Shown: positions 29,155 through 42,281, counted from the stretch's first letter. The stretch is DNA of 64,000 nucleotides from an uncultured Nannocystaceae bacterium (GCA_964402225.1 CAYOBQ010000002.1:27594-91593); one strand, 5' to 3'. Program-made: numbers and translations. The notes: generated by a model from the sequence alone, not told the origin.

Positions 29155-29859
29155 GTGGTGAGCGTGGATCGATCAGCCGCGCGCGTCTCCGTGCTCACCT
29201 CGACGCGGCCCTCGAGCGCGGTCGCCAGCGCCAGCTCGAAGTCTGGGCGGCCGACGCCGGCGGTTCCGTCGCTCCTCGGTGGACTCCTCGCCGACGATCC
29301 AGGCCTCGGCAACACCGCCGCCCGCGCCCTGGTGGAGGAGCTGGTCCCGCGCTGGTGGCTCGAACGACGCTACCATCGGCGGTCGCAGGGCATCGCCTGG
29401 CGCGAAGCGTCGGAGCTTGTGGAGCAACGCCTGCGCAGAGGCCGCCATTGGCCGCGTCTTCGGGCGCGGTTCAGGGCCGCCCGCATCGACTATCAGGCGC
29501 TCGCCGCGCGTGCCAATGCACACCCCTACGAAGGGTGGCGCCAGTTGGTGAGGCTCTGGTGCTCGGTGGGCGCGGCGGTTGGGCCTCTGCTCAAGCGAGC
29601 GAACGACACGGACTGGACATACATCCTGCTGGGGTCGTTCAGCCTGCCCACCGAAGACACGATGCTGCTGGACGTGCACCCCGCAGTGATCGAGGCGATG
29701 ACCGAGCTCGGCTACACGGCGGTCCAACTCACCTCACCCCCTGCGCCCACGTCGGTACACCCGCTCCCGACTGGAGGGGGTACGCGCATCGGACCGATGC
29801 CCTTGCCGAGGCGCGTCTTCCGGCTCCGACCGATTCCTGCCCGCGAACCCGTGGGGTGA
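29155..29859 (+). CDS. hypothetical protein (weak call)
   Basis: 234-aa ORF in the gap between convergent genes. Composition is protein-like (W/Y-containing: PRWWLERRYHRRSQGIAWREASELVEQ). No motif; exact start unclear. Confidence 0.3.
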   Translation: MVSVDRSAARVSVLTSTRPSSAVASASSKSGRPTPAVPSLLGGLLADDPGLGNTAARALVEELVPRWWLERRYHRRSQGIAWREASELVEQRLRRGRHWPRLRARFRAARIDYQALAARANAHPYEGWRQLVRLWCSVGAAVGPLLKRANDTDWTYILLGSFSLPTEDTMLLDVHPAVIEAMTELGYTAVQLTSPPAPTSVHPLPTGGGTRIGPMPLPRRVFRLRPIPAREPVG

Positions 29860-29885: not shown

Positions 29886-32633
29886 TCAGCCGCTGAGATC
29901 GACGCGTCGGCACAGCAACGTGTGGAAGCCCGTGGGCGCCAGCGCGTCCCGGCGACCGCTGCTGAAGTCGGTGGCCACGTCGCGCATCAGAAACGGCTGC
30001 GCGTCGTAGCGTCGAACGACGTCGTCGACGGAGACCGCGGCGGCCCACGACGGCGCGACCTCGATGGCCAGATCGCGGTTGGCCGCCAGCGTGCCCTCGT
30101 TTTGCAGGACCAGCCCGCCCTCGCAGACCAACCGCGAGCGCACCCGACCTTCGAGCTGTCCGCTCGTCTTCAGCGCGAGGTGCTCGCCGAAGCGGACGTC
30201 GGCGCGCGCGTCGGTCCAGGGGGCCACCGTGACCCGAGCCACGGCGTGGGCGTCGCCGGACCGTAGCCGGTGCAGACCCGCCTCGAGTCGCAGGAAGCCG
30301 TAGGGCCAGGCGCCGCCGAAGGAGAACATCGCGGGCTCATCATCGGCCCGGGGCTCGCGGAGCACGCCGACCCCTCGGTGCTGGGCGCGCGCCCAGGCGA
30401 GGTAGGTGCGCACCAGGAGATCGCGGGCGGGACGCCCCGACGCGCCCAGCGGGGCGACCTCGACCAGCGCGTCCCACTCCCCCTCCCGGCCCAGACGAAC
30501 CAGCTCACGCCAGCCGCGCTCGAGCGCGTCCTCGAGGCGGACCAGGGCGTGGGCCGCGCGGTCGACCAGAGCGCGGGTGTCCGCCGCCGCGTGGGCGTCC
30601 CGAAGACCGGCGAGCTCGTCGCGCAGCCGGTCGAGGCGATCACACGTCGCGTTGAGGCGCCCGAGGTCGCGGAGGTCCCGGGCCGCCGCGGCGGAGTCGT
30701 TCCAGAACTCGGGCTGGGCGCGCAGCTCCGTGACGCGCTCGCGCTCGCGGTGCAGGAACGGCTCGTCGAGGGTGCCAGCGAGGGTTTGGAGACGCGCCCC
30801 CGCCGCGTTGATGGCCTGCCCGATGGCGGCGCGATCGAGCTTGCGCCCGGGGACGGGCTCGACGGGCGCGTGCTCACGGGCGTGGGCGCGGCTGCTGGGC
30901 GTGTCGACGACGCTGACGCGCACATGGCCGTCGCGGGCGCGGGCGCGCAGGATCGAGCCTGGCTCCACGGCCCGCTCCATCAGGGTCATCGCGAGGGGCA
31001 AGACCAGCCGGCGCTGGAGCTCGCGCTTCAGGGCCCGGGCGCCGTAGCGGATCTCGTAGCCGCGGGCGATGAGCTGGTCGAGGGTCTCGTCGTCGACATC
31101 GACCACCAGGTTCCGGCGGGTCACGCCCTCCCGCGCCAGGATCCGGTCGAGCTCCTGGCGGGCGACGCGGCGCACCTGTCCCTCGTCGAGGGGATGGAAG
31201 ACGGCGACGTGCTGGAACCGGTTGAGCAGCTCCGGGCGAAACGCCCGCTCCAGCGCCTCCACCGTGCGCGACCGCCGCTCCGAGGCGTCGACGGAGCCAC
31301 CGAAGCCCACCGCGCGGTCGGCGTCTGAGGCCCCGACGTTCGAGGTTGCGATGAGGATCGTGTTGCGGAAGTCGACGGCGCGGCCACCGGGGGTCGTGAG
31401 CCGGCCCTCGTCGAGCAACGGCAACAGCATGTCCCAGACGTTCTCGTGGGCCTTCTCGAGCTCGTCGAAGAGCACCACCTGGAACGGGTGGGCCCGCACC
31501 GGATCGACCAGTCGCGCCGGGCGGCTGGGCTCGCGGGGGTTGCCCAGCAGCAGCTCGAAGGCGTGGTAGTCCTTGAACTCGCTGAGATCGAAGCGCAGCA
31601 AGCGGTGTGGGCTCCCGAAGAGGAAGGTGGCCAGCGCCCGGGCCAGCTCCGTCTTCCCAACGCCGGTCGGGCCGACGAAGAGGAAGGTGCCGATCGGCCG
31701 GGCCGGATCGCGCAGTCCCGCCTTGAACAACGCGATGGTCTCGACGACGGCCTCGATGGCCTCCGTCTGACCCACGATGCGCTCGGTAAACCACGCGCGG
31801 ATCTCGCGGGCCGGCACGGTGGCGTGGGGTGAGACGACGAAGAGCGGGAGCCCGCTGTAGATCGAGAAGACGCGCTCCACGAAGTCGGCCGTGAGCGGCT
31901 CGGCCTCGCCCTTGGCGCGCTTCGACTCGAGGTAGGCGCGCACCTGCTCGAGCATCGTCAGCGCCGGGCCGGGTTGCGTGCGCGTGTGGCCGAAGGTGCC
32001 CGTGAGATCGATCAGCCGCCCGCGGGCGTCGGCGTCGAGATCGAGGCGCGCGCGCTGGGCGGCATCGGCGACGACCTCCTCGACGGTGGACGCGTCGAGG
32101 GGCGCGACGGGGTGTTGGTGGAACTGGGTCAGCAGCAGGGGGTGACGCTCCATCTGCCGGAGCTGCTCGGGCTGCGCCTCGCCCAGCAGCACCAGCCCCT
32201 CCTCGAGGTAGGGCGCCAGCGCGTCGAGCATGTTGCGATGGCTGTTCGAGCTGCGACCGGCGTCGGGGAGGTGCCACACGTCGGTGACGCAGAGCACCTT
32301 CCGCTCCGCGATCGCCCGCTTGGCGACGGCGGTGACCTTCGACTCCCACTCGCCCAGGTACCGCGTGCGACTCATGAGCTGCGTGGTGCTGGTCTGCACG
32401 AGCCCCAACCCGCCGGCGGTCGCGAGGCGCGCGGCGACGGCGTGCACGATGGCCGTCTTGCCCACGCCGGGCTCACCGACCAGCAGCACCGAGCGCCCGC
32501 GGCCGAGAAGATCGGCGACGGCCTTGGCGTCGGCGTCACGGGCCAGGACCGGGGCGAACGCGTGGTCACGGGACGCCGCGAGGAGGTCCCGACAATCGAC
32601 CTCCAGGGCATCATGGAATGCGTCGTCGCTCAT
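29886..32633 (-). CDS. ClpA/ClpB-family double AAA+ ATPase (no Clp N-domain, no M-domain) fused to a C-terminal class-I peptide-chain release-factor-like domain (RF1/RF2 fold, GGQ and codon-recognition motifs not evident)
   Basis: NBD1 Walker A LLVGEPGVGKTAIVHAVAARLA. NBD2 Walker A FLFVGPTGVGKTELARALA, sensor/arginine region VVLFDELEKAHENVWDMLLPLLDEGRLT...NTILIATSN. The C-terminal ~300 aa aligns to the RF2 N- and GGQ-domains: AQPEFWNDSAAAARDLRDLGRL (cf. [22 protein letters not shown]), SFGGAWPYGFLRLEAGLHRLRS (cf. [21 protein letters not shown]), VRRYDAQPFLMRDVATDF...LAPTGFHTLL (cf. [35 protein letters not shown]). Start at MSDDAFHD. Confidence 0.8.
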   Translation of the reverse strand: MSDDAFHDALEVDCRDLLAASRDHAFAPVLARDADAKAVADLLGRGRSVLLVGEPGVGKTAIVHAVAARLATAGGLGLVQTSTTQLMSRTRYLGEWESKVTAVAKRAIAERKVLCVTDVWHLPDAGRSSNSHRNMLDALAPYLEEGLVLLGEAQPEQLRQMERHPLLLTQFHQHPVAPLDASTVEEVVADAAQRARLDLDADARGRLIDLTGTFGHTRTQPGPALTMLEQVRAYLESKRAKGEAEPLTADFVERVFSIYSGLPLFVVSPHATVPAREIRAWFTERIVGQTEAIEAVVETIALFKAGLRDPARPIGTFLFVGPTGVGKTELARALATFLFGSPHRLLRFDLSEFKDYHAFELLLGNPREPSRPARLVDPVRAHPFQVVLFDELEKAHENVWDMLLPLLDEGRLTTPGGRAVDFRNTILIATSNVGASDADRAVGFGGSVDASERRSRTVEALERAFRPELLNRFQHVAVFHPLDEGQVRRVARQELDRILAREGVTRRNLVVDVDDETLDQLIARGYEIRYGARALKRELQRRLVLPLAMTLMERAVEPGSILRARARDGHVRVSVVDTPSSRAHAREHAPVEPVPGRKLDRAAIGQAINAAGARLQTLAGTLDEPFLHRERERVTELRAQPEFWNDSAAAARDLRDLGRLNATCDRLDRLRDELAGLRDAHAAADTRALVDRAAHALVRLEDALERGWRELVRLGREGEWDALVEVAPLGASGRPARDLLVRTYLAWARAQHRGVGVLREPRADDEPAMFSFGGAWPYGFLRLEAGLHRLRSGDAHAVARVTVAPWTDARADVRFGEHLALKTSGQLEGRVRSRLVCEGGLVLQNEGTLAANRDLAIEVAPSWAAAVSVDDVVRRYDAQPFLMRDVATDFSSGRRDALAPTGFHTLLCRRVDLSG

Positions 32634-32694: not shown

Positions 32695-34035
32695 ATGCGC
32701 GTCCCCCCCATCGCCCTGCTACTCGTTGGCTGCCTCCCGGTGCTCGAGGACGAGTGCAGCGGGGGCGACTGCCCGCAGGGGCGTTGCGTGGCGGGCGTCT
32801 GCGTCGACGAGCCCGATGCGGGCGAGACCCCTGACACCCAGGTCGACGCCCAGATCCCAGACGCCGCCGCCGACGCTCGGGTGCCCGACGCACGTCCCCT
32901 CGACGGCCCCCTCCCCGACGTGCCCCGATCCCCCGAGATCTGCGACGGCGTGGACAACGACGTCGACGGCGCGATCGACGAAGGTGTCTGTGCCTGTCAA
33001 CCGGACGGCGCGCCGCGGGTCTTCGGCGGGCCGGCGGTCGGCCCTCCCTCCCTCGCCGAGAGGGCGGCCGGGACGCCCTCCGCGGCGTGGCTCACGACGA
33101 CCCAGGAGGAGGGCACGAGCCCCTGGCTCTTCATGGGCGAGCGCGAAGGGCCGCTCACCCTCGCCCAGACCCGGGCCGACCTCTTCGGCGCCCCGGTGCT
33201 GGCGCTCCTCGCGGGGCGCCACGTCGCGGTGGCGCGGTACGAAGTCGAGGGCGCCGCGGCGATGGGGTGGTCTCTGGGCGAGGCCGGCCCGGCGGACTCG
33301 TGGGCGCTGCGCAGGCACGACGGTCGCGCTTTCGAGACGCCGAGCGATCTCGGCGGGGCGCGGGTGGGGAGATCGCTGGCGGCGGCCTTCACCCACCAAG
33401 AGGCCGACACCCGCACGCTGAGCCTGGTGCGCCTCGACGCGGACGGGTTCAGCGCGCCGGTCGAGCTCGCGCGCGGCGACTTCACGAGGATGGCGCCAGC
33501 GGTGGCGACGGTCTCGCGCCGACTCCTGGTGGCCGTCGCGCGGGACGAGGGGCGGACGCTGCGGGTGCTCGACGCGATGGGCGACCACGCCCCCGCCGAG
33601 GTGCACCTCGATGGGTTCATCTCGGCGGTTCGGCTGGCCTCACGCCAGCAAGACGACGTCGCCCTGCTCGCGGTGACCTACACGCGGGGGCGCGAGTCGA
33701 TCGCGCGGCTCTTCGTGGTCCGGCTCGCCGACGCGGTCGAGGTCCAGCCGACGGAGTTCGAGGTCGTGGTCCACGACCGGACGACGCCCGCCGTGGGCCG
33801 CACCGACGGCGGCTTCGCCGTGGCCCTGCTGCAGCTCGGAGCGGTGAGGTACCTGCAGTTCGATCTGGCCGGCGTTCAGCTCGGCGAGGCCCACGCCGTG
33901 GAGGTCGTCGACCCCGGCGGCGACGGTGTCGCGGACCTCGCGGTGGCCGCGCGGGGGGCGATGCGCTGGGTCGCCTGGACCCGCTCACGGGGCGCCGAAC
34001 CGGGCCTCGTGATGCAGCCAATGAACTGCCGATAG
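32695..34035 (+). CDS. hypothetical lipoprotein
   Basis: Lipobox LLLVGCLPV. Cys-rich N-terminal module followed by a ~350-aa probable beta-rich domain. No catalytic motif recognised. Confidence 0.55.
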   Translation: MRVPPIALLLVGCLPVLEDECSGGDCPQGRCVAGVCVDEPDAGETPDTQVDAQIPDAAADARVPDARPLDGPLPDVPRSPEICDGVDNDVDGAIDEGVCACQPDGAPRVFGGPAVGPPSLAERAAGTPSAAWLTTTQEEGTSPWLFMGEREGPLTLAQTRADLFGAPVLALLAGRHVAVARYEVEGAAAMGWSLGEAGPADSWALRRHDGRAFETPSDLGGARVGRSLAAAFTHQEADTRTLSLVRLDADGFSAPVELARGDFTRMAPAVATVSRRLLVAVARDEGRTLRVLDAMGDHAPAEVHLDGFISAVRLASRQQDDVALLAVTYTRGRESIARLFVVRLADAVEVQPTEFEVVVHDRTTPAVGRTDGGFAVALLQLGAVRYLQFDLAGVQLGEAHAVEVVDPGGDGVADLAVAARGAMRWVAWTRSRGAEPGLVMQPMNCR

Positions 34036-34093: not shown

Positions 34094-34324
34094 ATGGAGA
34101 ACGGGGTGGCCAAGGAAGAGGGAATCACGGTCGAGGGGACGGTCATCGAGCCGCTCCCCAACGCGATGTTTCGCGTAGAACTCGAAAACGGCCACAAGGT
34201 GCTCGCCCACGTCTCCGGGAAGATGCGGAAGTTCTTCATCCGCATCCTCCCCGGCGACAAGGTGACCGTCGAGCTGTCCCCCTACGACCTCACGCGTGGT
34301 CGAATCACCTACCGCGCGCGGTAG
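34094..34324 (+). CDS. infA: translation initiation factor IF-1
   Basis: [68 protein letters not shown] is the canonical S1-like IF-1 sequence. Confidence 0.9.
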
Positions 34325-34343
34325 CTCGACCTCTTCAGTCGAG
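34325..34343. terminator. short inverted repeat between convergent infA and trpS (possible bidirectional terminator stem)
   Basis: ctcgacCTCTTCAgtcgag forms a 6-bp stem with a 7-nt loop. No T-tract, as expected for a high-GC genome. Weak call. Confidence 0.2.
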
Positions 34344-35297
34344 GCCGCAGTTGCGACGCGCGCGGCTCAGCACCTCGCGCGCGACGACGCGAGCCTTCTC
34401 GGCGCCGGCCTGGAGAACCGCCTCGACCTCGTCGGGGCGCTGGTCGTAGGCGTCACGCCGGTCCCGCATCTCACCGAAGTGCTCGTCGATCTTGGCGAGC
34501 AGCGCGAGCTTCGCGTGCCCGTAGCCGTAGCCGCCAGCGCGGTAGAGCTCGGCCATCTCCGCCTTCTCGTCGGCGCTCGCCATCAGCGAGTACAGGGCGA
34601 AGACCGTGCACTTGTCGGGATCCTTGGCGCCCTCGAGGGGCGTCGAGTCAGTCTTGATCGCCATCACCAGCTTCTTCAGCGCCTTGCCGCGGGCGAAGAT
34701 GGGGATGGCGTTGCCGTAGCTCTTCGACATCTTGGTGCCGTCGAGGCCGGGGACCGCCTCCGGGACACCGAGGTGGTGCCTCGGTAGCACGAAGGTCTCG
34801 CCGTACTTCGTGTTGAAGTGCGTCGCCATGTCGCGGGTCATCTCGACGTGCTGGACCTGGTCGGGCCCAACCGGGACCACCTTCGAGTCATAGAGCAGGA
34901 TGTCGGCGGCCATGAGGACCGGGTAGTAGAACAACGACACGCTGGCGGCGATGCCCCGGGCCTTCTTGTCCTTGTAGGAGTGGGCGCGCTCCAGCAGCCC
35001 CATCCCGGTCACGCTCGCCAGCAGCCACGCCAGCTCCGTCACCTCGGGCACGTCGGACTGCCGGAAGAAGACCGCGCGCTCGGGGTCGAGCCCGCAGGCG
35101 AGATACGTCGCCGCGAGGTCGAAGACGTTCCCTCGCAGCGTCGCGGCGTCGCCGCTGCTGGTCAGCGCGTGGTAGTCGGCGATGAAGTAGAAGGCGTCGT
35201 CCTGGGTGGCGACGTGCTGACGAATCGCCCCGAAGTAGTTGCCTAGGTGTTGCAGCCCCGAGGGCTGAATCCCGGATAGGTGCCGCTCGCCCGCCAT
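34335..35297 (-). CDS. trpS: tryptophan--tRNA ligase
   Basis: SGIQPSGLQHLGNY (TrpRS-type HIGH region) and KMSKSYGNAI (KMSKS). About 320 aa, the size of a class Ic synthetase. Confidence 0.9.
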   Translation of the reverse strand: MAGERHLSGIQPSGLQHLGNYFGAIRQHVATQDDAFYFIADYHALTSSGDAATLRGNVFDLAATYLACGLDPERAVFFRQSDVPEVTELAWLLASVTGMGLLERAHSYKDKKARGIAASVSLFYYPVLMAADILLYDSKVVPVGPDQVQHVEMTRDMATHFNTKYGETFVLPRHHLGVPEAVPGLDGTKMSKSYGNAIPIFARGKALKKLVMAIKTDSTPLEGAKDPDKCTVFALYSLMASADEKAEMAELYRAGGYGYGHAKLALLAKIDEHFGEMRDRRDAYDQRPDEVEAVLQAGAEKARVVAREVLSRARRNCGLD

Positions 35298-38028: not shown

Positions 38029-39189
38029 ATGAAGTGCGCCGGCTGCGGTCGCGTCGTCCCCGTCGGCCACCAGCCCTGCCCCAAATGCGACCATCTCCCC
38101 ACGTGTCGCGTGAAGGCACTCGGCCCCCCGGGGCACCTGCCCGAACGACTCGCGCGAGCCCTCGGCCAACGCGGCTACGACGCCGAAGCCGTCCGCCGCG
38201 CGCTGCGGGTCGAGGCCGATGGTGCCCTGCTCGACGCGTCGGGGGACCGCCTCGGTGTGCTGCTGCGCTTCCTGGAAGCGACCCAGACCGAGCTGGTCGT
38301 CGCCCCCCTCGACGCCGAGGGGAACGCGATGGCGGCGGCGATCGAGGCGAAGGGACCGCCCGTCGGCCTCCTCGTTCTCGCGGCCATCGCGGCGGCGGGC
38401 ATCACGTCGGTGGCCCTGCGCCTCGCCGGGGTCGGCGCCGTGGAGCCCCTCCCCGTCGCGGTGGCCGAGCCGGACGCCGCCGTCGCCGCCCGGGTGACTC
38501 CAGACGCCACGACGCCCCCGGAGCCCAGCAGATCCGCCGCCGACGCGGCGCCGCCGACCCACGTGCCCGACGCCGGCGTCGCCCCCGCGCGAGCGGCTGA
38601 GGCGAGGGCACGCGACGCGACGGTCATCCTCCGCCTGCCGAGCGGGCGCGTCGCCGCCGGGCTCCTGGTGACCCGGGAGGGCCACATCCTCACCCAGCTC
38701 AGCCTCCTGGCCGACGCCCGGGAGGTGAAGGTGCGATTCGCCGACGACACCTCCGCCGTCGCCCGCCGCGCCCGCGACCACGCGGCCCACGACCTCGCGG
38801 TCCTGCGGGTCGTCGGCGGCGCGACCGCCACCCCGGCGTCCTTGGACGGCGCCGCAACGCTCAGACGGGGCGACGAGGTCCTCGTCGTGGGCTCACCGGT
38901 GGGCGGCGACTTCGCCATCTCCCGGGGCCGGATCACCCGCCACGAGGTGTGGCTCGGCGCGCGCCCCGCGTTCCGAATCGACGCCCTCACGGGCCCCCGG
39001 CACAGCGGCGGTGCGGTCTTCGACGCCCGCGGGACGGTGGTCGGCCTGCTCACGGACAACACCCGGCGCGCAGACACCGGCTACGCGCTCTACATCGAGT
39101 TGGCCTACCAAGGCGACGCGGTCCTGACCCCGATCCTCGGACGTCACCCGCGCAGCCCCGCCTTCGCCGGGCTGAAGCCCCGCCGTTGA
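38029..39189 (+). CDS. membrane-anchored trypsin-like (S1/DegP-type) serine peptidase with N-terminal zinc ribbon
   Basis: CAGCGRVVPVGHQPCPKCDH zinc ribbon. TM LLVLAAIAAAGITSVAL. Chymotrypsin-fold motifs HDLAVLRV (Asp region) and GPRHSGGAVFDARGTVVGL (GxSGG Ser). The stop overlaps the recC start. Start could alternatively be TTG 38014. Confidence 0.65.
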   Translation: MKCAGCGRVVPVGHQPCPKCDHLPTCRVKALGPPGHLPERLARALGQRGYDAEAVRRALRVEADGALLDASGDRLGVLLRFLEATQTELVVAPLDAEGNAMAAAIEAKGPPVGLLVLAAIAAAGITSVALRLAGVGAVEPLPVAVAEPDAAVAARVTPDATTPPEPSRSAADAAPPTHVPDAGVAPARAAEARARDATVILRLPSGRVAAGLLVTREGHILTQLSLLADAREVKVRFADDTSAVARRARDHAAHDLAVLRVVGGATATPASLDGAATLRRGDEVLVVGSPVGGDFAISRGRITRHEVWLGARPAFRIDALTGPRHSGGAVFDARGTVVGLLTDNTRRADTGYALYIELAYQGDAVLTPILGRHPRSPAFAGLKPRR

Positions 39190-42100
39190 TCGTTCACCGC
39201 AGCGACCGGGTCGAGGTGCTCGCGGAGCGGCTCACAGACCTCACGCAGACCCCGCCGGCGGATCCGCTCGCGCCGGAGATCGTGGTCGTCGACAGCCGCG
39301 GGATGGCGCGCTGGCTCGGCTTCCGCCTGGCCCAGCGGCTGCCCGTCTGCGCTCACTTCGAGTGGCCGTCGCCGGGGCGCTTCCTCTACGACTGCTTCGA
39401 AGCCGTCCTCGGCCCCGACGCCGTCGACTTCGCGGGCTGGTCCGCCGATCGACTCCTGTGGGCGGTCGCGCAGACGCTCCCCACGCTCACCGGTCGGCCC
39501 GACTTCGCCCACCTCGCCGCCTACCTCGGGGGCGACGCCCCCGGCGCGCGCAAGCCGGTGCTGTTGGCGCGAGAGATTGGCCGCGCGTTTGCGCGCTACG
39601 TCCGCTACCGCCCCGACCTCCTGCGCGCTTGGGACGATGGGGCCGGGGATGGCTGGCAGCCCGCCCTGTGGCGCGCGCTGCCGAACCACGACGCCGGCGC
39701 GCACCTCGCCCGCGTCGCCGACCGTTTCGCCGCGCGCGTGGGCCACGCCACCGCGGCGCTGCCGGCCCGCGTCTCTCTCTTCGGCCTCACGACCCTCCCG
39801 CCCCTCTACACAGAGGCGCTGCGCGCCCTCGGGCGCCACGTACCGGTCCACATCTTCGCGCTCACGCCCACCCTCGCCACCGAGGCGCACCCGCTCTACG
39901 CCTCCAATGGCCGGCTCTTCATGGATCTGGGCGCCTCGCTCGCGGACGCCCAAACCCTCCACGACGACTTCGCGGAGCCCGACGCGACGACCCTGCTGGG
40001 CGCGCTCCAGGCGGATCTCGTCGCAGGCCGCGTCCGACCACACGTCCTGGGCGCCGACGGCAGCGTGCAGATCCACGCCTGCCATGGGCCCATGCGCCAG
40101 GTCGAGGTGCTGCGCGACGCCCTCGTCTCCGCCTTCGACGCGCTCCCGGACCTCCAGCCGCGTGACGTCCTCGTGATGACGCCAGACATCGACACCTACG
40201 CGCCCCTCGTCCACGCCGTCTTCGCCGACGAGACGCCGGGTGTGCCCCCGATGCCCTTCCGCGTCGCAGACCGCGCCGCGCGCCACGGGAACCTCGTCGG
40301 CGAGGCGCTGCTGGCCACGCTCGCGCTGGTCGGTGGCCGGGCCGAGGCTTCGACGGTCACCGACCTCCTCGCCACGGGCCCCGTCCACCGGCGCTTCGGC
40401 GTCGACCCCGATGACCTCCCGCGCGTCCGCGGCTGGATCGCCGACTGCGGCATTCATTGGGGCATCGACGCCGACCATCGCGCGGCGTGGGGACAGCCAC
40501 CCGACGCCACCCACACCTGGCGCGCGGGCACCGACCGGATGCTCCTCGGGCGCGCGATGGCCGGTGACTGGCTACACCTCTACGGCGGCACCCTCCCCTA
40601 CGACGATGTGCAGGGCCGCGACACCCTCGTATTGGGTCGGGTGGTCGACTTCCTGGAGACCCTCTTCGAGCGGCTGCGCGCGATGGCGGATCCGCGACCC
40701 ATGGCGGAGTGGTCGGGCGCCCTCACGACGACCCTCGACGCGCTCTTCGCCAGCGGGGACACCGACGCCTCGCAGCACGTCCAACTCCGGGAGATCATCA
40801 CCCAGATGGTCCGCGACGCCGCCGCGGTCGGCGCGGATCTGCCGGTGAGCGTCGACGCCATCAGCGCCCTCATCGCCGCGCGGCTGGACGACCGGGGCGC
40901 GCCCACGGGCTTCCTCTCGGGGGCGATGACCTTCTGCGAGCTCGTCCCGATGCGCAGCATCCCGTTTCGGGTCATAGCGCTTGTGGGCATGGACGACGGC
41001 GCGTTCCCTCGCTCCGCCACGCGGCCAGGCTTCGACCTCGTCGACCGCGAGCCCCGGGCCGGCGACCGCAGCCGCCGCGACGACGATCGCGCCCTCTTCC
41101 TGGAGGCCGTGCTGGCGGCCCGGGACCGGCTGCTGGTGACCTACACCGGGCGCGACATCCACGGCAACCGGACGAAGGCGCCGGCGGTCCCCATCGGCGA
41201 GCTCATCGATGTGCTCGCCGACACCTTCCCGGGGGTGGAGCTTCGCCGTGAGCATCCGCTGCAGGCCTTCAGCCCGCGGAACTTCGACGCCGCCGGGCCG
41301 CGCAGCTACGACCGGGGCGCCCTGCGGGCCGCCGCGGCGCTCTCGAGCTCACGTCGGGAGCCCCCCGCGGCCTTCTTCGCCGAGCCGCTCCCGCCCCCCG
41401 AACCCGCGCCGATCGACCTCGACCTGCTCTGCCGCTTCTTCGAGGGGCCCGCCCGCGCGCTGCTGGGGCGCCGGCTCGGCCTCTGGTACCGATCCGACGA
41501 GGATCCGATCTCCGACGCGCGCCCCCTGGATCTCGACGGCCTCGCCCGCTGGAAGCTCGGCGACACGCTCCTCGGTCTCCGCCTGAAGCACCCCGGCCTC
41601 AACGCCTTCGAGGCGATGATGGCCAGCGGGCTCCTACCGCCAGGCCCCCCCGGGCGCGAAGCCTACGACCGAGCCGAGCGCACGGTGGGCAACCTCGTCG
41701 AGTCGATCGAGCGGGCCCGGGCGGGGGCCGCCTTCCACCCCATCGACGTCGATCTCGAGATCCCCTCGGACGGCGCGCCGGTGCGCCTCATCGGCCGCGT
41801 CGACCACCTCTATCCGGGCGGCCGAGTCCACCATCAGTTCTCGCGCGTACAACCGAAGCACCTCGTGTCTTGGTGGGTACGCCACGTCGTGCTGCACGTC
41901 GCCGCCGGCCCCGGCTCCAGCATCCTCCTCGGCCGCCCCTCCCGGGGAGAGGGCGTCCGCACGGAGCGCCTCGGCCCGATCCCCCTCGAGGCGGCCCGGA
42001 CGTGCCTCCTCGATCTGCTCTCGCTCTACGCGGAGGGCCAACGAACCGCGCTGCCCTTCTTCCCCGCCACCTCTCGCGCCTGGATGAGCCGGCTCCCGGA

Positions 42101-42281
42101 TCGCGCCGCCGCCGCCCAGGCCGCGCGCGCCGCCTGGTACCGGGAGCGAGACGCCTACTACGACCGCGCCTTCGGCCTCGGCGACACGCCCCCCCCGGCG
42201 TCGGCGGCGCTGCGGGAAGACTTCGCGACCCTGGCGAGGCGCATCTGGACGCCCTTCGACCGGGCCCGTGGTCGCGCATGA
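39186..42281 (+). CDS. recC: exodeoxyribonuclease V gamma subunit RecC
   Basis: LIVHRSDRVEVLAERLTDLTQ...PEIVVVDSRGMARWLGFRLAQRLPVCAHFEWPSPGRFLYDCF matches the RecC N-terminus (MLxVYHSNRLD...GM.WL...F.P..F.W). About 1030 aa. Directly followed by recB with an ATGA overlap. Start appears to be TTG. Confidence 0.85.
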   Translation: MIVHRSDRVEVLAERLTDLTQTPPADPLAPEIVVVDSRGMARWLGFRLAQRLPVCAHFEWPSPGRFLYDCFEAVLGPDAVDFAGWSADRLLWAVAQTLPTLTGRPDFAHLAAYLGGDAPGARKPVLLAREIGRAFARYVRYRPDLLRAWDDGAGDGWQPALWRALPNHDAGAHLARVADRFAARVGHATAALPARVSLFGLTTLPPLYTEALRALGRHVPVHIFALTPTLATEAHPLYASNGRLFMDLGASLADAQTLHDDFAEPDATTLLGALQADLVAGRVRPHVLGADGSVQIHACHGPMRQVEVLRDALVSAFDALPDLQPRDVLVMTPDIDTYAPLVHAVFADETPGVPPMPFRVADRAARHGNLVGEALLATLALVGGRAEASTVTDLLATGPVHRRFGVDPDDLPRVRGWIADCGIHWGIDADHRAAWGQPPDATHTWRAGTDRMLLGRAMAGDWLHLYGGTLPYDDVQGRDTLVLGRVVDFLETLFERLRAMADPRPMAEWSGALTTTLDALFASGDTDASQHVQLREIITQMVRDAAAVGADLPVSVDAISALIAARLDDRGAPTGFLSGAMTFCELVPMRSIPFRVIALVGMDDGAFPRSATRPGFDLVDREPRAGDRSRRDDDRALFLEAVLAARDRLLVTYTGRDIHGNRTKAPAVPIGELIDVLADTFPGVELRREHPLQAFSPRNFDAAGPRSYDRGALRAAAALSSSRREPPAAFFAEPLPPPEPAPIDLDLLCRFFEGPARALLGRRLGLWYRSDEDPISDARPLDLDGLARWKLGDTLLGLRLKHPGLNAFEAMMASGLLPPGPPGREAYDRAERTVGNLVESIERARAGAAFHPIDVDLEIPSDGAPVRLIGRVDHLYPGGRVHHQFSRVQPKHLVSWWVRHVVLHVAAGPGSSILLGRPSRGEGVRTERLGPIPLEAARTCLLDLLSLYAEGQRTALPFFPATSRAWMSRLPDRAAAAQAARAAWYRERDAYYDRAFGLGDTPPPASAALREDFATLARRIWTPFDRARGRA

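Follow-up and report, generated by a model that had tools for sequence, protein, structure and literature searches.

A 64,000-nt stretch of DNA (72% GC) from an uncultured Nannocystaceae bacterium, referred to here as the window, encodes a single protein in which a ClpC-like tandem AAA+ ATPase is fused to a C-terminal module related to the class-I release factor (RF) RF2, and in which this module has shed the elements used by RF2 to read stop codons and to hydrolyze peptidyl-tRNA. The fusion is a domain architecture that is both new and conserved, and each of its halves shows unusual motif states. We tentatively interpret the protein, with a confidence that stops a little short of even, as a ribosome-directed Clp machine in which the dead RF would serve as a tRNA-mimic targeting domain, possibly in partnership with ClpP. 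The gene is one open reading frame (ORF) on the minus strand (positions 29886–32633; 915 codons plus stop). The frame extends further upstream, to a TTG at 32957, and the ATG at 32633 is taken as the start because homologs from 20 genomes begin exactly there with the pattern M-[SAG]-D-D-x-[YF].

The kinship of the C-terminal module with class-I RFs, first proposed in a reading of the DNA alone (the sequence-only reading), is borne out by profile, sequence and profile–profile comparisons. The Pfam PCRF model (PF03462) matches residues 629–790 with 32.6 bits, or 34.9 bits when the C-terminus is searched alone, against a gathering cut-off of 24 bits. When the module is compared with the PDB using phmmer, only RF2 chains are matched (E ~1e-10, RF2 residues 16–201), and HHalign aligns the family profile with Escherichia coli RF2 at a probability of 97.9% (E 5e-13) over RF2 residues 11–349, that is, across all four domains. 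Of the two Pfam models that had been suggested as a check, PCRF is thus matched above its cut-off, whereas the RF-1/GGQ domain model (PF00472) does not match the C-terminus on its own, even with the threshold relaxed to E<=10; similarly, the NCBIfam prfB model (TIGR00020) reaches E 3e-12 and 46.1 bits, below its equivalog cut-off of 370. All the motifs quoted in the sequence-only reading were found in the protein (VVLFDELEKAH, LLPLLDEGRLT, AQPEFWND, GAWPYGFLRLEAGLHRLRS, VRRYD...RD and SGQ).

The structural model and the pattern of conservation point in the same direction. In the full-length AlphaFold2 model, which was built from 40 sequences and has a predicted local distance difference test score (pLDDT) of 91.5, the RF-like module is predicted confidently over its whole length (pLDDT ~90 or above). 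Among RF2 structures, it is the compact, off-ribosome form that AlphaFold2 modeling resembles most (template modeling score 0.61 to 1gqe). Across 40 superfamily members, the residues that remain conserved are RF core positions (FW, Y..W, E-G-H, R-x-Y and D). The mean column identity of RF domains 2 and 3 is 0.51–0.52, compared with 0.45 for D1, the first AAA+ ring; their conservation equals or exceeds that of D1, so the dead RF module is under selection. The linker that joins the D2-small domain to RF domain 1 (residues 577–612) contains a conserved basic motif, T-x-x-S-R-x-x-x-R-E-x-x-P-[VI], and is partly structured in the full-length model, with a helix at 579–587 and short strands.

The sequence-only reading had seen in this one gene no GGQ (SGQ at best) and neither an SPF nor a PxT tripeptide; multiple alignment extends both losses to the entire family, with no intact GGQ in any member. 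The states of the two motifs were read from two independent alignments, made with MAFFT and HHalign, which agree. An 8-residue deletion cuts the RF2 loop HRLVRKSPFDSGGRRHTSF to HRLRSGD-AHAV and takes out the SPF tripeptide, so that every family member is without an SPF or PxT anticodon loop. The first Gly of GGQ is kept in no member (20 genome loci and 40 superfamily proteins), and about half of the members have lost the Gln, homologs reading GH, GP, GT, GI, GS, GA, GV or KG here; close relatives are among them (SGP in locus L003). The segment that comprises helix alpha7 and the switch loop, delimited by Q-N-D and I-R-S-Y, is 33–36 residues long in every member as against 52 in RF2, a shortening by ~18 residues with which about half of alpha7 is gone. 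Furthermore, the Glu at the tip of alpha5, within G-G-T-E of RF2, aligns with Pro in the window protein and with Ala or Leu in most homologs, and the acidity of RF2 is lost, domain 1 having a net charge of about -3 compared with -19 in RF2 and the module being near-neutral.

It is established RF biochemistry that both glycines of GGQ are needed for catalysis, and it is the switch loop together with alpha7 that places RF domain 3 in the peptidyl-transferase center (PTC). Given the loss of the SPF loop, GGQ, the switch loop and the long alpha7, the module should not read stop codons nor hydrolyze peptidyl-tRNA and, because alpha7 and the switch loop are so much shorter, it probably cannot span the distance from the decoding center to the PTC. 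With GGQ, SPF and a PF00472 match all absent and the prfB threshold missed, the C-terminus of this gene is, judged from its sequence, homologous to RF2 but not a release factor. We also considered the possibility that a new catalytic site has arisen in the module, formed by the invariant His, Cys and Asp of the C-terminal helix, and rejected it, as these residues are invariant only in close relatives and not in the wider family.

The N-terminal part of the protein is, by both sequence and structural modeling, a member of the Clp/Hsp100 superfamily that appears nearest to ClpC and ClpA. Pfam models detect AAA at residues 49–144, AAA_2 at 312–475 (E 5e-42) and ClpB_D2-small at 482–562, that is, a tandem AAA+ arrangement. 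The best PDB sequence match of the ATPase is Staphylococcus aureus ClpC (E 9e-79), ClpA aligns in one piece over residues 22–560, and the nearest structures found by Foldseek with the full-length model are the ClpC chains of ClpC–ClpP complexes (E 4e-41), followed by ClpB. The NCBIfam equivalog models for ClpA and ClpB (TIGR03346) score 283 against a cut-off of 993 and 314 against 1232 bits, respectively. The sequence-only reading correctly noted that a Clp N-domain and a middle (M) domain are lacking: Pfam gives no match to Clp_N, and the alignments contain no counterpart to ClpC residues 400–461 or to the ClpB M domain. Its assignment of a ClpB-type D2 signature stands as far as the quoted strings are concerned, but the nearest relatives by sequence and by structure are ClpC proteins, and a conserved V-G-F loop in D2 had gone unnoticed.

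The two rings differ in the state of their motifs, and the earlier description of a bona fide two-ring unfoldase with two Walker A/B sets has to be revised in this respect. The D2 set and the D1 Walker A motif are present as described, but the catalytic Glu of the D1 Walker B motif is Val. This Glu (TDVWH) and the Arg fingers (LTQF in place of ERRF) are gone from D1 in every family and superfamily member examined; the D1 pore-loop Tyr is strongly conserved (T-[RK]-Y-[LI]-G-E-W). D1 is predicted from these motifs to bind ATP without hydrolyzing it. In D2, all the hydrolysis motifs are conserved (GPTGVGKT, FDELEKAH, TSN as sensor 1, FRPELLNR and GAR as sensor 2), and the D2 large domain is the best-conserved part of the protein (mean column identity 0.71). 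Judging by its motifs, D2 would be the sole hydrolysis-competent ring, such that the protein would combine one live with one dead ring. Canonical threading by Hsp100/ClpA proteins requires the aromatic residue of the GYVG pore loop. The corresponding D2 pore-1 loop, GNPRE-PSRPARLVD, has a 3-residue deletion and contains no aromatic residue in all members; it follows a conserved Pro- and Arg/Lys-rich pattern, G-x-P-x-x-P-x-x-P-A-x-L-x-D, that none of the models offered here explains. Because D1 is dead and D2, the only competent ring, is devoid of the pore-loop aromatic, classical unfolding is not established, and the notion of a bona fide two-ring unfoldase goes too far.

The last AAA+ ring carries, on a flexible loop, a docking tripeptide of the [LIV]-G-[FL] kind typical of the ClpP-partnered unfoldases ClpA, ClpC, ClpE and ClpX, namely V442-G443-F444. 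The loop conforms to [VILF]-G-F, with G443 and F444 conserved in at least 90% of the 40 superfamily sequences, and is the sole segment of the full-length model with a pLDDT below 50, as expected for an exposed docking loop. From their sequence, these V-G-F loops may dock ClpP, and the conservation of a loop of the ClpP-docking type changes the mechanistic picture. There is no clpP gene adjacent to the family gene in the annotated loci, nor among the adjacent genes scanned in the other loci.

The C-terminal profile was compared exhaustively with 1.84 billion cluster representatives using HMMER; ~70 of them matched with E<1e-30 as the threshold, and 360 with E<1e-10. Complete members are 915–940 aa long. 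A scan of species-representative genomes yielded 20 loci, all in metagenome-assembled genomes (MAGs), many of which are labeled Myxococcota, Myxococcales or Deltaproteobacteria; 16 of the 20 have full-length ORFs of 912–933 aa with 49–63% identity. A cultured carrier is Oligoflexus tunisiensis (Bdellovibrionota), the complete genome of which encodes WP_141731509.1, a protein annotated just as "AAA family ATPase"; databases also carry the automatic name "ClpA / release factor A". All 40 of the superfamily members match PCRF, AAA_2 and D2-small. Distant relatives of 1100–1400 aa possess N-terminal HEAT (P0099, P0111 and P0121) or TPR (P0116) repeats before the core of D1, D2, D2-small and PCRF, and share the dead D1, the GYVG-less D2, the xGF loop and the lack of GGQ. 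Such added N-termini combined with a constant RF module fit variable substrate adaptors with a constant RF-based function.

Several family members and possible relatives depart from this general plan. In three full-length proteins (P0039, P0040 and P0094), the Walker A/B motifs of D2 are gone as well (e.g., GPSGVGRG and HFDAVEDAD), and these copies look either decaying or fully non-enzymatic. Two short proteins are possible standalone RF-like relatives, one of 327 aa (P0087) with GGQ and no SPF and the other of 401 aa (P0089) without GGQ, SPF or Walker A. In locus L023 (GCA_046766455.1, 7224–10193), the ortholog is broken up into three ORFs in succession (76 + 352 + 540 aa), and in locus L005 (8318–10909) the frame stops ~160 nt early; frameshifts, pseudogenes or sequencing errors in the MAGs are candidate causes of these breaks.

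The gene neighborhoods are variable. All-against-all BLAST of the ORFs from 21 loci detected no conserved operon partners beyond the synteny of one sub-clade, and the immediate neighbors at 7 loci, as identified with Pfam (ABC-F-like, SNF2, XPB, DAG kinase and O-methyltransferase), have unrelated functions. The fusion gene in the window is standalone and monocistronic, as originally read, and no neighbor is conserved across the family. Of its two flanking genes, both of which had been described as divergent lipoprotein genes, the upstream one (hypothetical/lipoprotein, 32788–34035, plus strand) is indeed divergent, whereas the downstream one (hypothetical, 29155–29859, plus strand) is convergent. 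Just past the upstream neighbor lie infA, coding for IF-1 (PF01176, 76 aa; 34094–34324, plus strand), and trpS (34335–35297, minus strand). The same two genes are located directly upstream of the ortholog in loci L023, L001 and L003, which together with the window constitute the closest sub-clade, and at no other family locus. IF-1 itself binds the 30S A site. We nevertheless rejected the infA/trpS adjacency as a family-wide functional link: since the other family loci are without it, it represents sub-clade synteny. ABC-F proteins are usually ribosome-associated; a single case of an ABC-F-like neighbor, a protein of 500 aa with two ABC domains and a charged linker between them, is found in locus L004 (11106–12608, minus strand), where its gene is convergent to that of the family and the two overlap at the end of the latter.

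From the observed architecture, motif states and conservation of the fusion, we infer a standalone, hexameric Clp/Hsp100-type ATPase whose ancestor would have been a ClpC/ClpA-like, ClpP-partnered enzyme in which the usual N-terminal substrate selector was replaced by the C-terminal RF2-derived module. This module, which would keep the four-domain tRNA-mimic shape, is envisaged to park the ATPase at the A site or factor-binding site of ribosomes with a vacant A site. Continued recognition of this site would be the simplest reason for keeping the full scaffold while discarding the decoding and catalytic elements, and binding of the module to the ribosomal A site is plausible on these grounds. 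Any such docking must differ from that of RF2, since neither the decoding contacts nor the switch loop are left and alpha7 has become shorter. In RF–ribosome structures, RF domain 1 protrudes from the ribosome close to the L11/L7-L12 stalk. The AAA+ ring is joined to the N-terminus of precisely this domain, so that docking is sterically conceivable. Within the ATPase, D1 could function as a non-hydrolyzing, nucleotide-stabilized ring for assembly and substrate gripping, and D2 as the sole motor, with ATP hydrolysis splitting the complex, stripping a bound factor or extracting a polypeptide; the conserved V-G-F loops may then dock ClpP, and the extracted material would be degraded. The infA/trpS adjacency in the closest sub-clade lends weak support to this proposal. 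A bolder formulation, which we consider doubtful, is that with this protein a new class of ribosome-associated machines begins in bacteria, one that has converged on Pelota–ABCE1 or Vms1–Cdc48 within a single chain. The dead RF2 would probe empty-A-site ribosomes, and the ClpC-derived ring, with D1 gripping without hydrolysis and D2 hydrolyzing ATP without a pore-loop aromatic, would split the ribosome or feed the bound polypeptide to ClpP. In a still more radical version, the Pro/Arg-rich, aromatic-free pore loop of D2 would engage RNA (mRNA or tRNA) rather than protein.

Several considerations weigh against a ribosome-directed Clp machine. All the RF2 features known for specific contacts with the decoding center are missing: the SPF loop and the switch loop, the Glu of alpha5 and roughly half of alpha7. 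Should the RF modules hang from the D2 face to which ClpP docks, simultaneous binding of the ribosome and ClpP may be sterically difficult. The D2 pore loop without an aromatic residue argues against processive unfolding and is awkward with a ClpP partnership. No neighbor is conserved family-wide, infA/trpS being confined to one sub-clade, and genomic context is silent on ribosome binding. Moreover, Myxococcota already carry tmRNA, ArfB, RqcH and MutS2 (PMC11633108), so that there is no obvious rescue gap to fill and the protein would add to the canonical rescue systems, not replace them.

Conceivably, the RF-like module has left the ribosome altogether and is an exapted interaction, regulatory or oligomerization domain, such as an adaptor-like selector or an autoinhibitory cap, of a ClpC-like ATPase that acts with ClpP on soluble substrates. 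We regard this alternative as the main rival while judging it rather unlikely. It accommodates the loss of every specific decoding-center and PTC-reaching element, the near-neutral charge of the module compared with the acidic RF2, the conserved ClpP-type loop, the lack of a gene neighborhood that would tie the whole family to translation, and the resemblance of the AlphaFold2 model to the compact form of RF2. It does not readily account for the preservation, at 29–63% identity, of the whole four-domain tRNA-mimic scaffold, domain 1 included, with the conserved positions being those of the RF core; a mere interaction domain would not be expected to keep all four RF domains, and neither a new conserved surface motif nor a new catalytic constellation came to light. 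The missing pore-loop aromatic of D2 is left unexplained by ribosome targeting and exaptation alike.

A dead D1 combined with a D2 that has no pore-loop aromatic, a combination that argues against threading, would suit a stress-induced translation blocker or ribosome-parking factor, in which the dead RF is an A-site decoy and the ATPase just controls loading, unloading or assembly. Similar reasoning has a precedent in inactive RF paralogs, the Gln-less baeRF-1 families (PMC6514570). The conservation of the ClpP-type docking loop and of the D1 pore-loop Tyr, the lack of association with hibernation factors and the cost of a 600-aa ATPase as an accessory to mere occupancy make this explanation improbable in our estimate.

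We assign a similarly low probability to a role in biological conflict, whereby the protein would sense or repair ribosomes attacked by effectors in an anti-phage or toxin response, comparably to PrfH–RtcB. The partial matches to the ClpB-like defense ATPases DolB and PDC-M37B returned by PADLOC are limited to roughly 120–200 residues of the generic D2 ATPase core; no conserved partner gene accompanies the family; and tblastn searches of plasmid and phage collections yielded no family copies, only ordinary prfB. Membership in a defense system was therefore rejected. The patchy distribution, the variable neighborhoods, the variants with N-terminal HEAT or TPR repeats and the toxin–antitoxin modules near one locus would fit a component of conflict systems, but the synteny with housekeeping trpS, infA and recBC in the sub-clade looks chromosomal and vertical. 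The toxin–antitoxin genes in question (VapB-like, Phd/YefM-like and HipA) are at L023 15666–19695, ~5–9 kb downstream of the ortholog.

Two further explanations are essentially excluded. That the module has kept peptidyl-tRNA hydrolase activity, so that through S-G-Q it would release nascent chains that are then unfolded, is highly improbable: G-Q does occupy the aligned position in the window protein and in about half of its relatives, but the first Gly, one of the two needed for catalysis in RFs generally, is always replaced, the Gln is replaced in many members, close relatives included (SGP in L003), PF00472 is not matched, and with alpha7 and the switch loop ~18 residues short the PTC is probably out of reach. 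The chance that the fusion is an artefact of mis-assembly or of a frameshift joining a Clp gene with a prfB-like gene, a concern to which only the metagenomic origin of the window gives rise, is negligible, and the recurrence of the architecture already refutes it, as the identical protein is encoded on 4 independent Joint Genome Institute (JGI) metagenome contigs (<=113 kb), the same single ORF recurs in dozens of clusters and among the 20 genome loci (full-length in 16, from different MAG projects) as well as in the O. tunisiensis genome, the full-length model is confident, and the GC content at third codon positions is 0.91 along the whole frame, with a codon-position signal that is unbroken across the gene.

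The features of the fusion gene are listed in Table 1.

Table 1. Features of the fusion gene, in window coordinates and in the order of the protein from its N- to its C-terminus
Feature	Position	Strand	Basis or state
Complete coding sequence, ClpC-like tandem AAA+ ATPase fused to RF2-like module, 915 aa + stop	29886..32633	-	
D1 AAA+ module, residues ~20-235, ClpA/ClpC D1-like	31929..32576	-	Pfam; aligned to ClpC 164-400 and ClpB D1; pLDDT >85
D1 Walker A, GEPGVGKT	32454..32477	-	mostly conserved in family; degenerate in few members
D1 pore loop, TRYLGEW, equivalent of ClpB KYRGEFE; aromatic conserved	32346..32366	-	
Degenerate D1 Walker B, VLCVTDVWH, Val for catalytic Glu	32271..32297	-	aligned to ClpC/ClpB IDELH
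D1 Arg-finger position, LLLTQFH (ALERRFQ in ClpB); arginines gone	32118..32138	-	
D2 AAA+ large domain, AAA_2, residues 312-475	31209..31700	-	Pfam AAA_2, E 5e-42
D2 Walker A, GPTGVGKT	31650..31673	-	every locus covering the site; few superfamily members degenerate; G324, G326, K327, T328 invariant in A3
D2 pore-loop region, GNPREPSRPARLVD, residues 364-377, in place of ClpB/ClpC GAPPGYVGxxxGGQLTE	31503..31544	-	
D2 Walker B, VVLFDELEKAH, D-E intact	31446..31478	-	
V442-G443-F444-G-G loop at ClpP-docking position	31296..31310	-	in register with S. aureus ClpC AGFGGS and with ClpA IGL grafted in BAP
D2 Arg-finger region, FRPELLNR	31218..31241	-	P467, E468, R472 invariant
D2-small domain with sensor 2 (YGARALKRE) and terminal beta-hairpin	30906..31190	-	Pfam ClpB_D2-small 482-562
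Linker from D2-small to RF domain 1 (residues 577-612), mildly basic	30798..30905	-	mean net charge +2.5
RF domain 1-like helical bundle with P-E-F-W-N-D	30489..30797	-	PCRF match, RF2 alignments, models
RF domain 2-like, codon-recognition domain scaffold	30198..30488	-	RF2 alignments
HRLRSGDAHAV, site of the deleted SPF loop (HRLVRKSPFDSGGRRHTSF in RF2)	30240..30272	-	universal in family
RF domain 3-like, GGQ-domain scaffold with shortened helix alpha7	30036..30197	-	RF2 alignments
S-G-Q aligned on GGQ of RF2	30156..30164	-	MAFFT and HHalign
RF domain 4-like, VRRYD...RD...FHxLLCxRVD	29889..30035	-	RF2 alignments; confident in full-length model

Elsewhere in the window, a gene for a Trypsin_2 serine protease is located at ~38110–39189 (plus strand), followed from ~39186–42281 (plus strand) onward by recC and then by a UvrD-helicase/PDDEXK recB-like gene. 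All these positions were transferred from JGI gene calls for L021, and the genes are apparently unrelated to the fusion gene. Rfam and tRNA scans of window positions 1–64000 gave no match to any tRNA, tmRNA or Rfam family.

Ribosome rescue and nascent-chain quality control in bacteria are currently explained by tmRNA, ArfA/ArfB, PrfH, RqcH/RqcP, MutS2/SmrB and HflX-type factors. To our knowledge, this list does not include any AAA+ unfoldase with the ribosome as its direct target, and we know of the logic of an RF-like probe coupled to an ATPase motor so far just from archaea and eukaryotes (Pelota–ABCE1 and Vms1–Cdc48). Full-text searches of the literature found no description of a Clp ATPase–RF fusion, in accord with the impression of the sequence-only reading that the architecture is uncharacterized: a survey of the diversity of bacterial-type RFs covers RF1, RF2, ArfB, PrfH, ICT1, C12orf65 and MRPS35 and contains no AAA+ fusion (PMC6514570), and AAA+ or Clp factors do not figure in a review of rescue pathways in bacteria. 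If ribosome targeting were confirmed, the protein would constitute a novel class of ribosome-associated machine in bacteria, the first bacterial combination of an RF-like probe with an AAA+/ATPase motor, reached with unrelated folds, and would open an ATP-driven route of rescue, quality control or ribosome turnover that is new to bacteria. Furthermore, the family amounts to a natural experiment on the AAA+ mechanism, with a dead ring that has its pore Tyr, a live ring without the aromatic residue and a retained loop of the ClpP-docking type. The hypothesis is directly testable because a homolog exists in the cultured O. tunisiensis (WP_141731509.1).

With respect to known systems, the ATPase shares with ClpC and ClpA the tandem D1–D2 AAA+ core, D2-small, the D1 pore-loop Tyr and a [VILF]-G-F loop at the docking position; it differs from them in lacking the N and M domains, the D1 Walker B Glu, the Arg fingers and the GYVG of D2, and in possessing an extra RF2-like C-terminal module of ~340 aa. 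ClpB/Hsp104 are set apart by the coiled-coil M domain inserted in D1, by Clp_N and by the TIGR03346 score, none of which is matched by the fusion protein. The module has in common with RF2 (prfB) the four-domain fold, PCRF and the motifs P-x-F-W, Y-G-x-L-x-x-E-x-G-x-H-R, Q-N-x-R-x-x-x-x-N-R-x-x-A, R-R-Y and R-D; unlike RF2, it is without the SPF loop and GGQ, has a shorter switch loop and alpha7, and is covalently tied to an ATPase. In ArfB, which has a C-terminal basic tail, and in PrfH, which is linked to RtcB, GGQ is kept for catalysis and RF domain 1 is absent (PMC6514570); RtcB was not found among the annotated neighbors of the family loci. They are thus the opposite case, since the fusion protein keeps domain 1 and has lost GGQ, and neither of them is fused to an ATPase, so that the distinction drawn from these two factors in the sequence-only reading is upheld. 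A precedent for a Gln-less RF domain on the ribosome is MRPS35, a mitochondrial ribosomal protein with a bacterial-type RF-PH domain that is devoid of the catalytic Gln and still ribosome-associated (PMC6514570); in this case, however, only the GGQ-type domain is present, its role is structural, and there is no ATPase.

The closest parallels in logic would be with archaeal and eukaryotic factors. Vms1 is a catalytically active member of the aeRF1 superfamily that recruits Cdc48 through a VIM motif and not by fusion (PMC6514570), and the Vms1/ANKZF1–Cdc48/p97 system of eukaryotic ribosome quality control (RQC) offers a functional analogy, as it couples an RF-type domain with a type II AAA+ unfoldase that acts on nascent chains bound to the ribosome. 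Dom34/Pelota is an RF paralog with neither the catalytic Gln motif nor stop-codon recognition that moves into the A site when ribosomes have stalled and, together with an ATPase, takes them apart (PMC6514570); here too the analogy would be functional only, the folds being unrelated (aeRF1 versus bacterial RF, and ABC versus AAA+) and the partners being separate polypeptides. Thus, the likeness to Vms1–Cdc48 that was drawn in the sequence-only reading is a reasonable analogy, and that to Dom34/Pelota–ABCE1 appears at least as apt.

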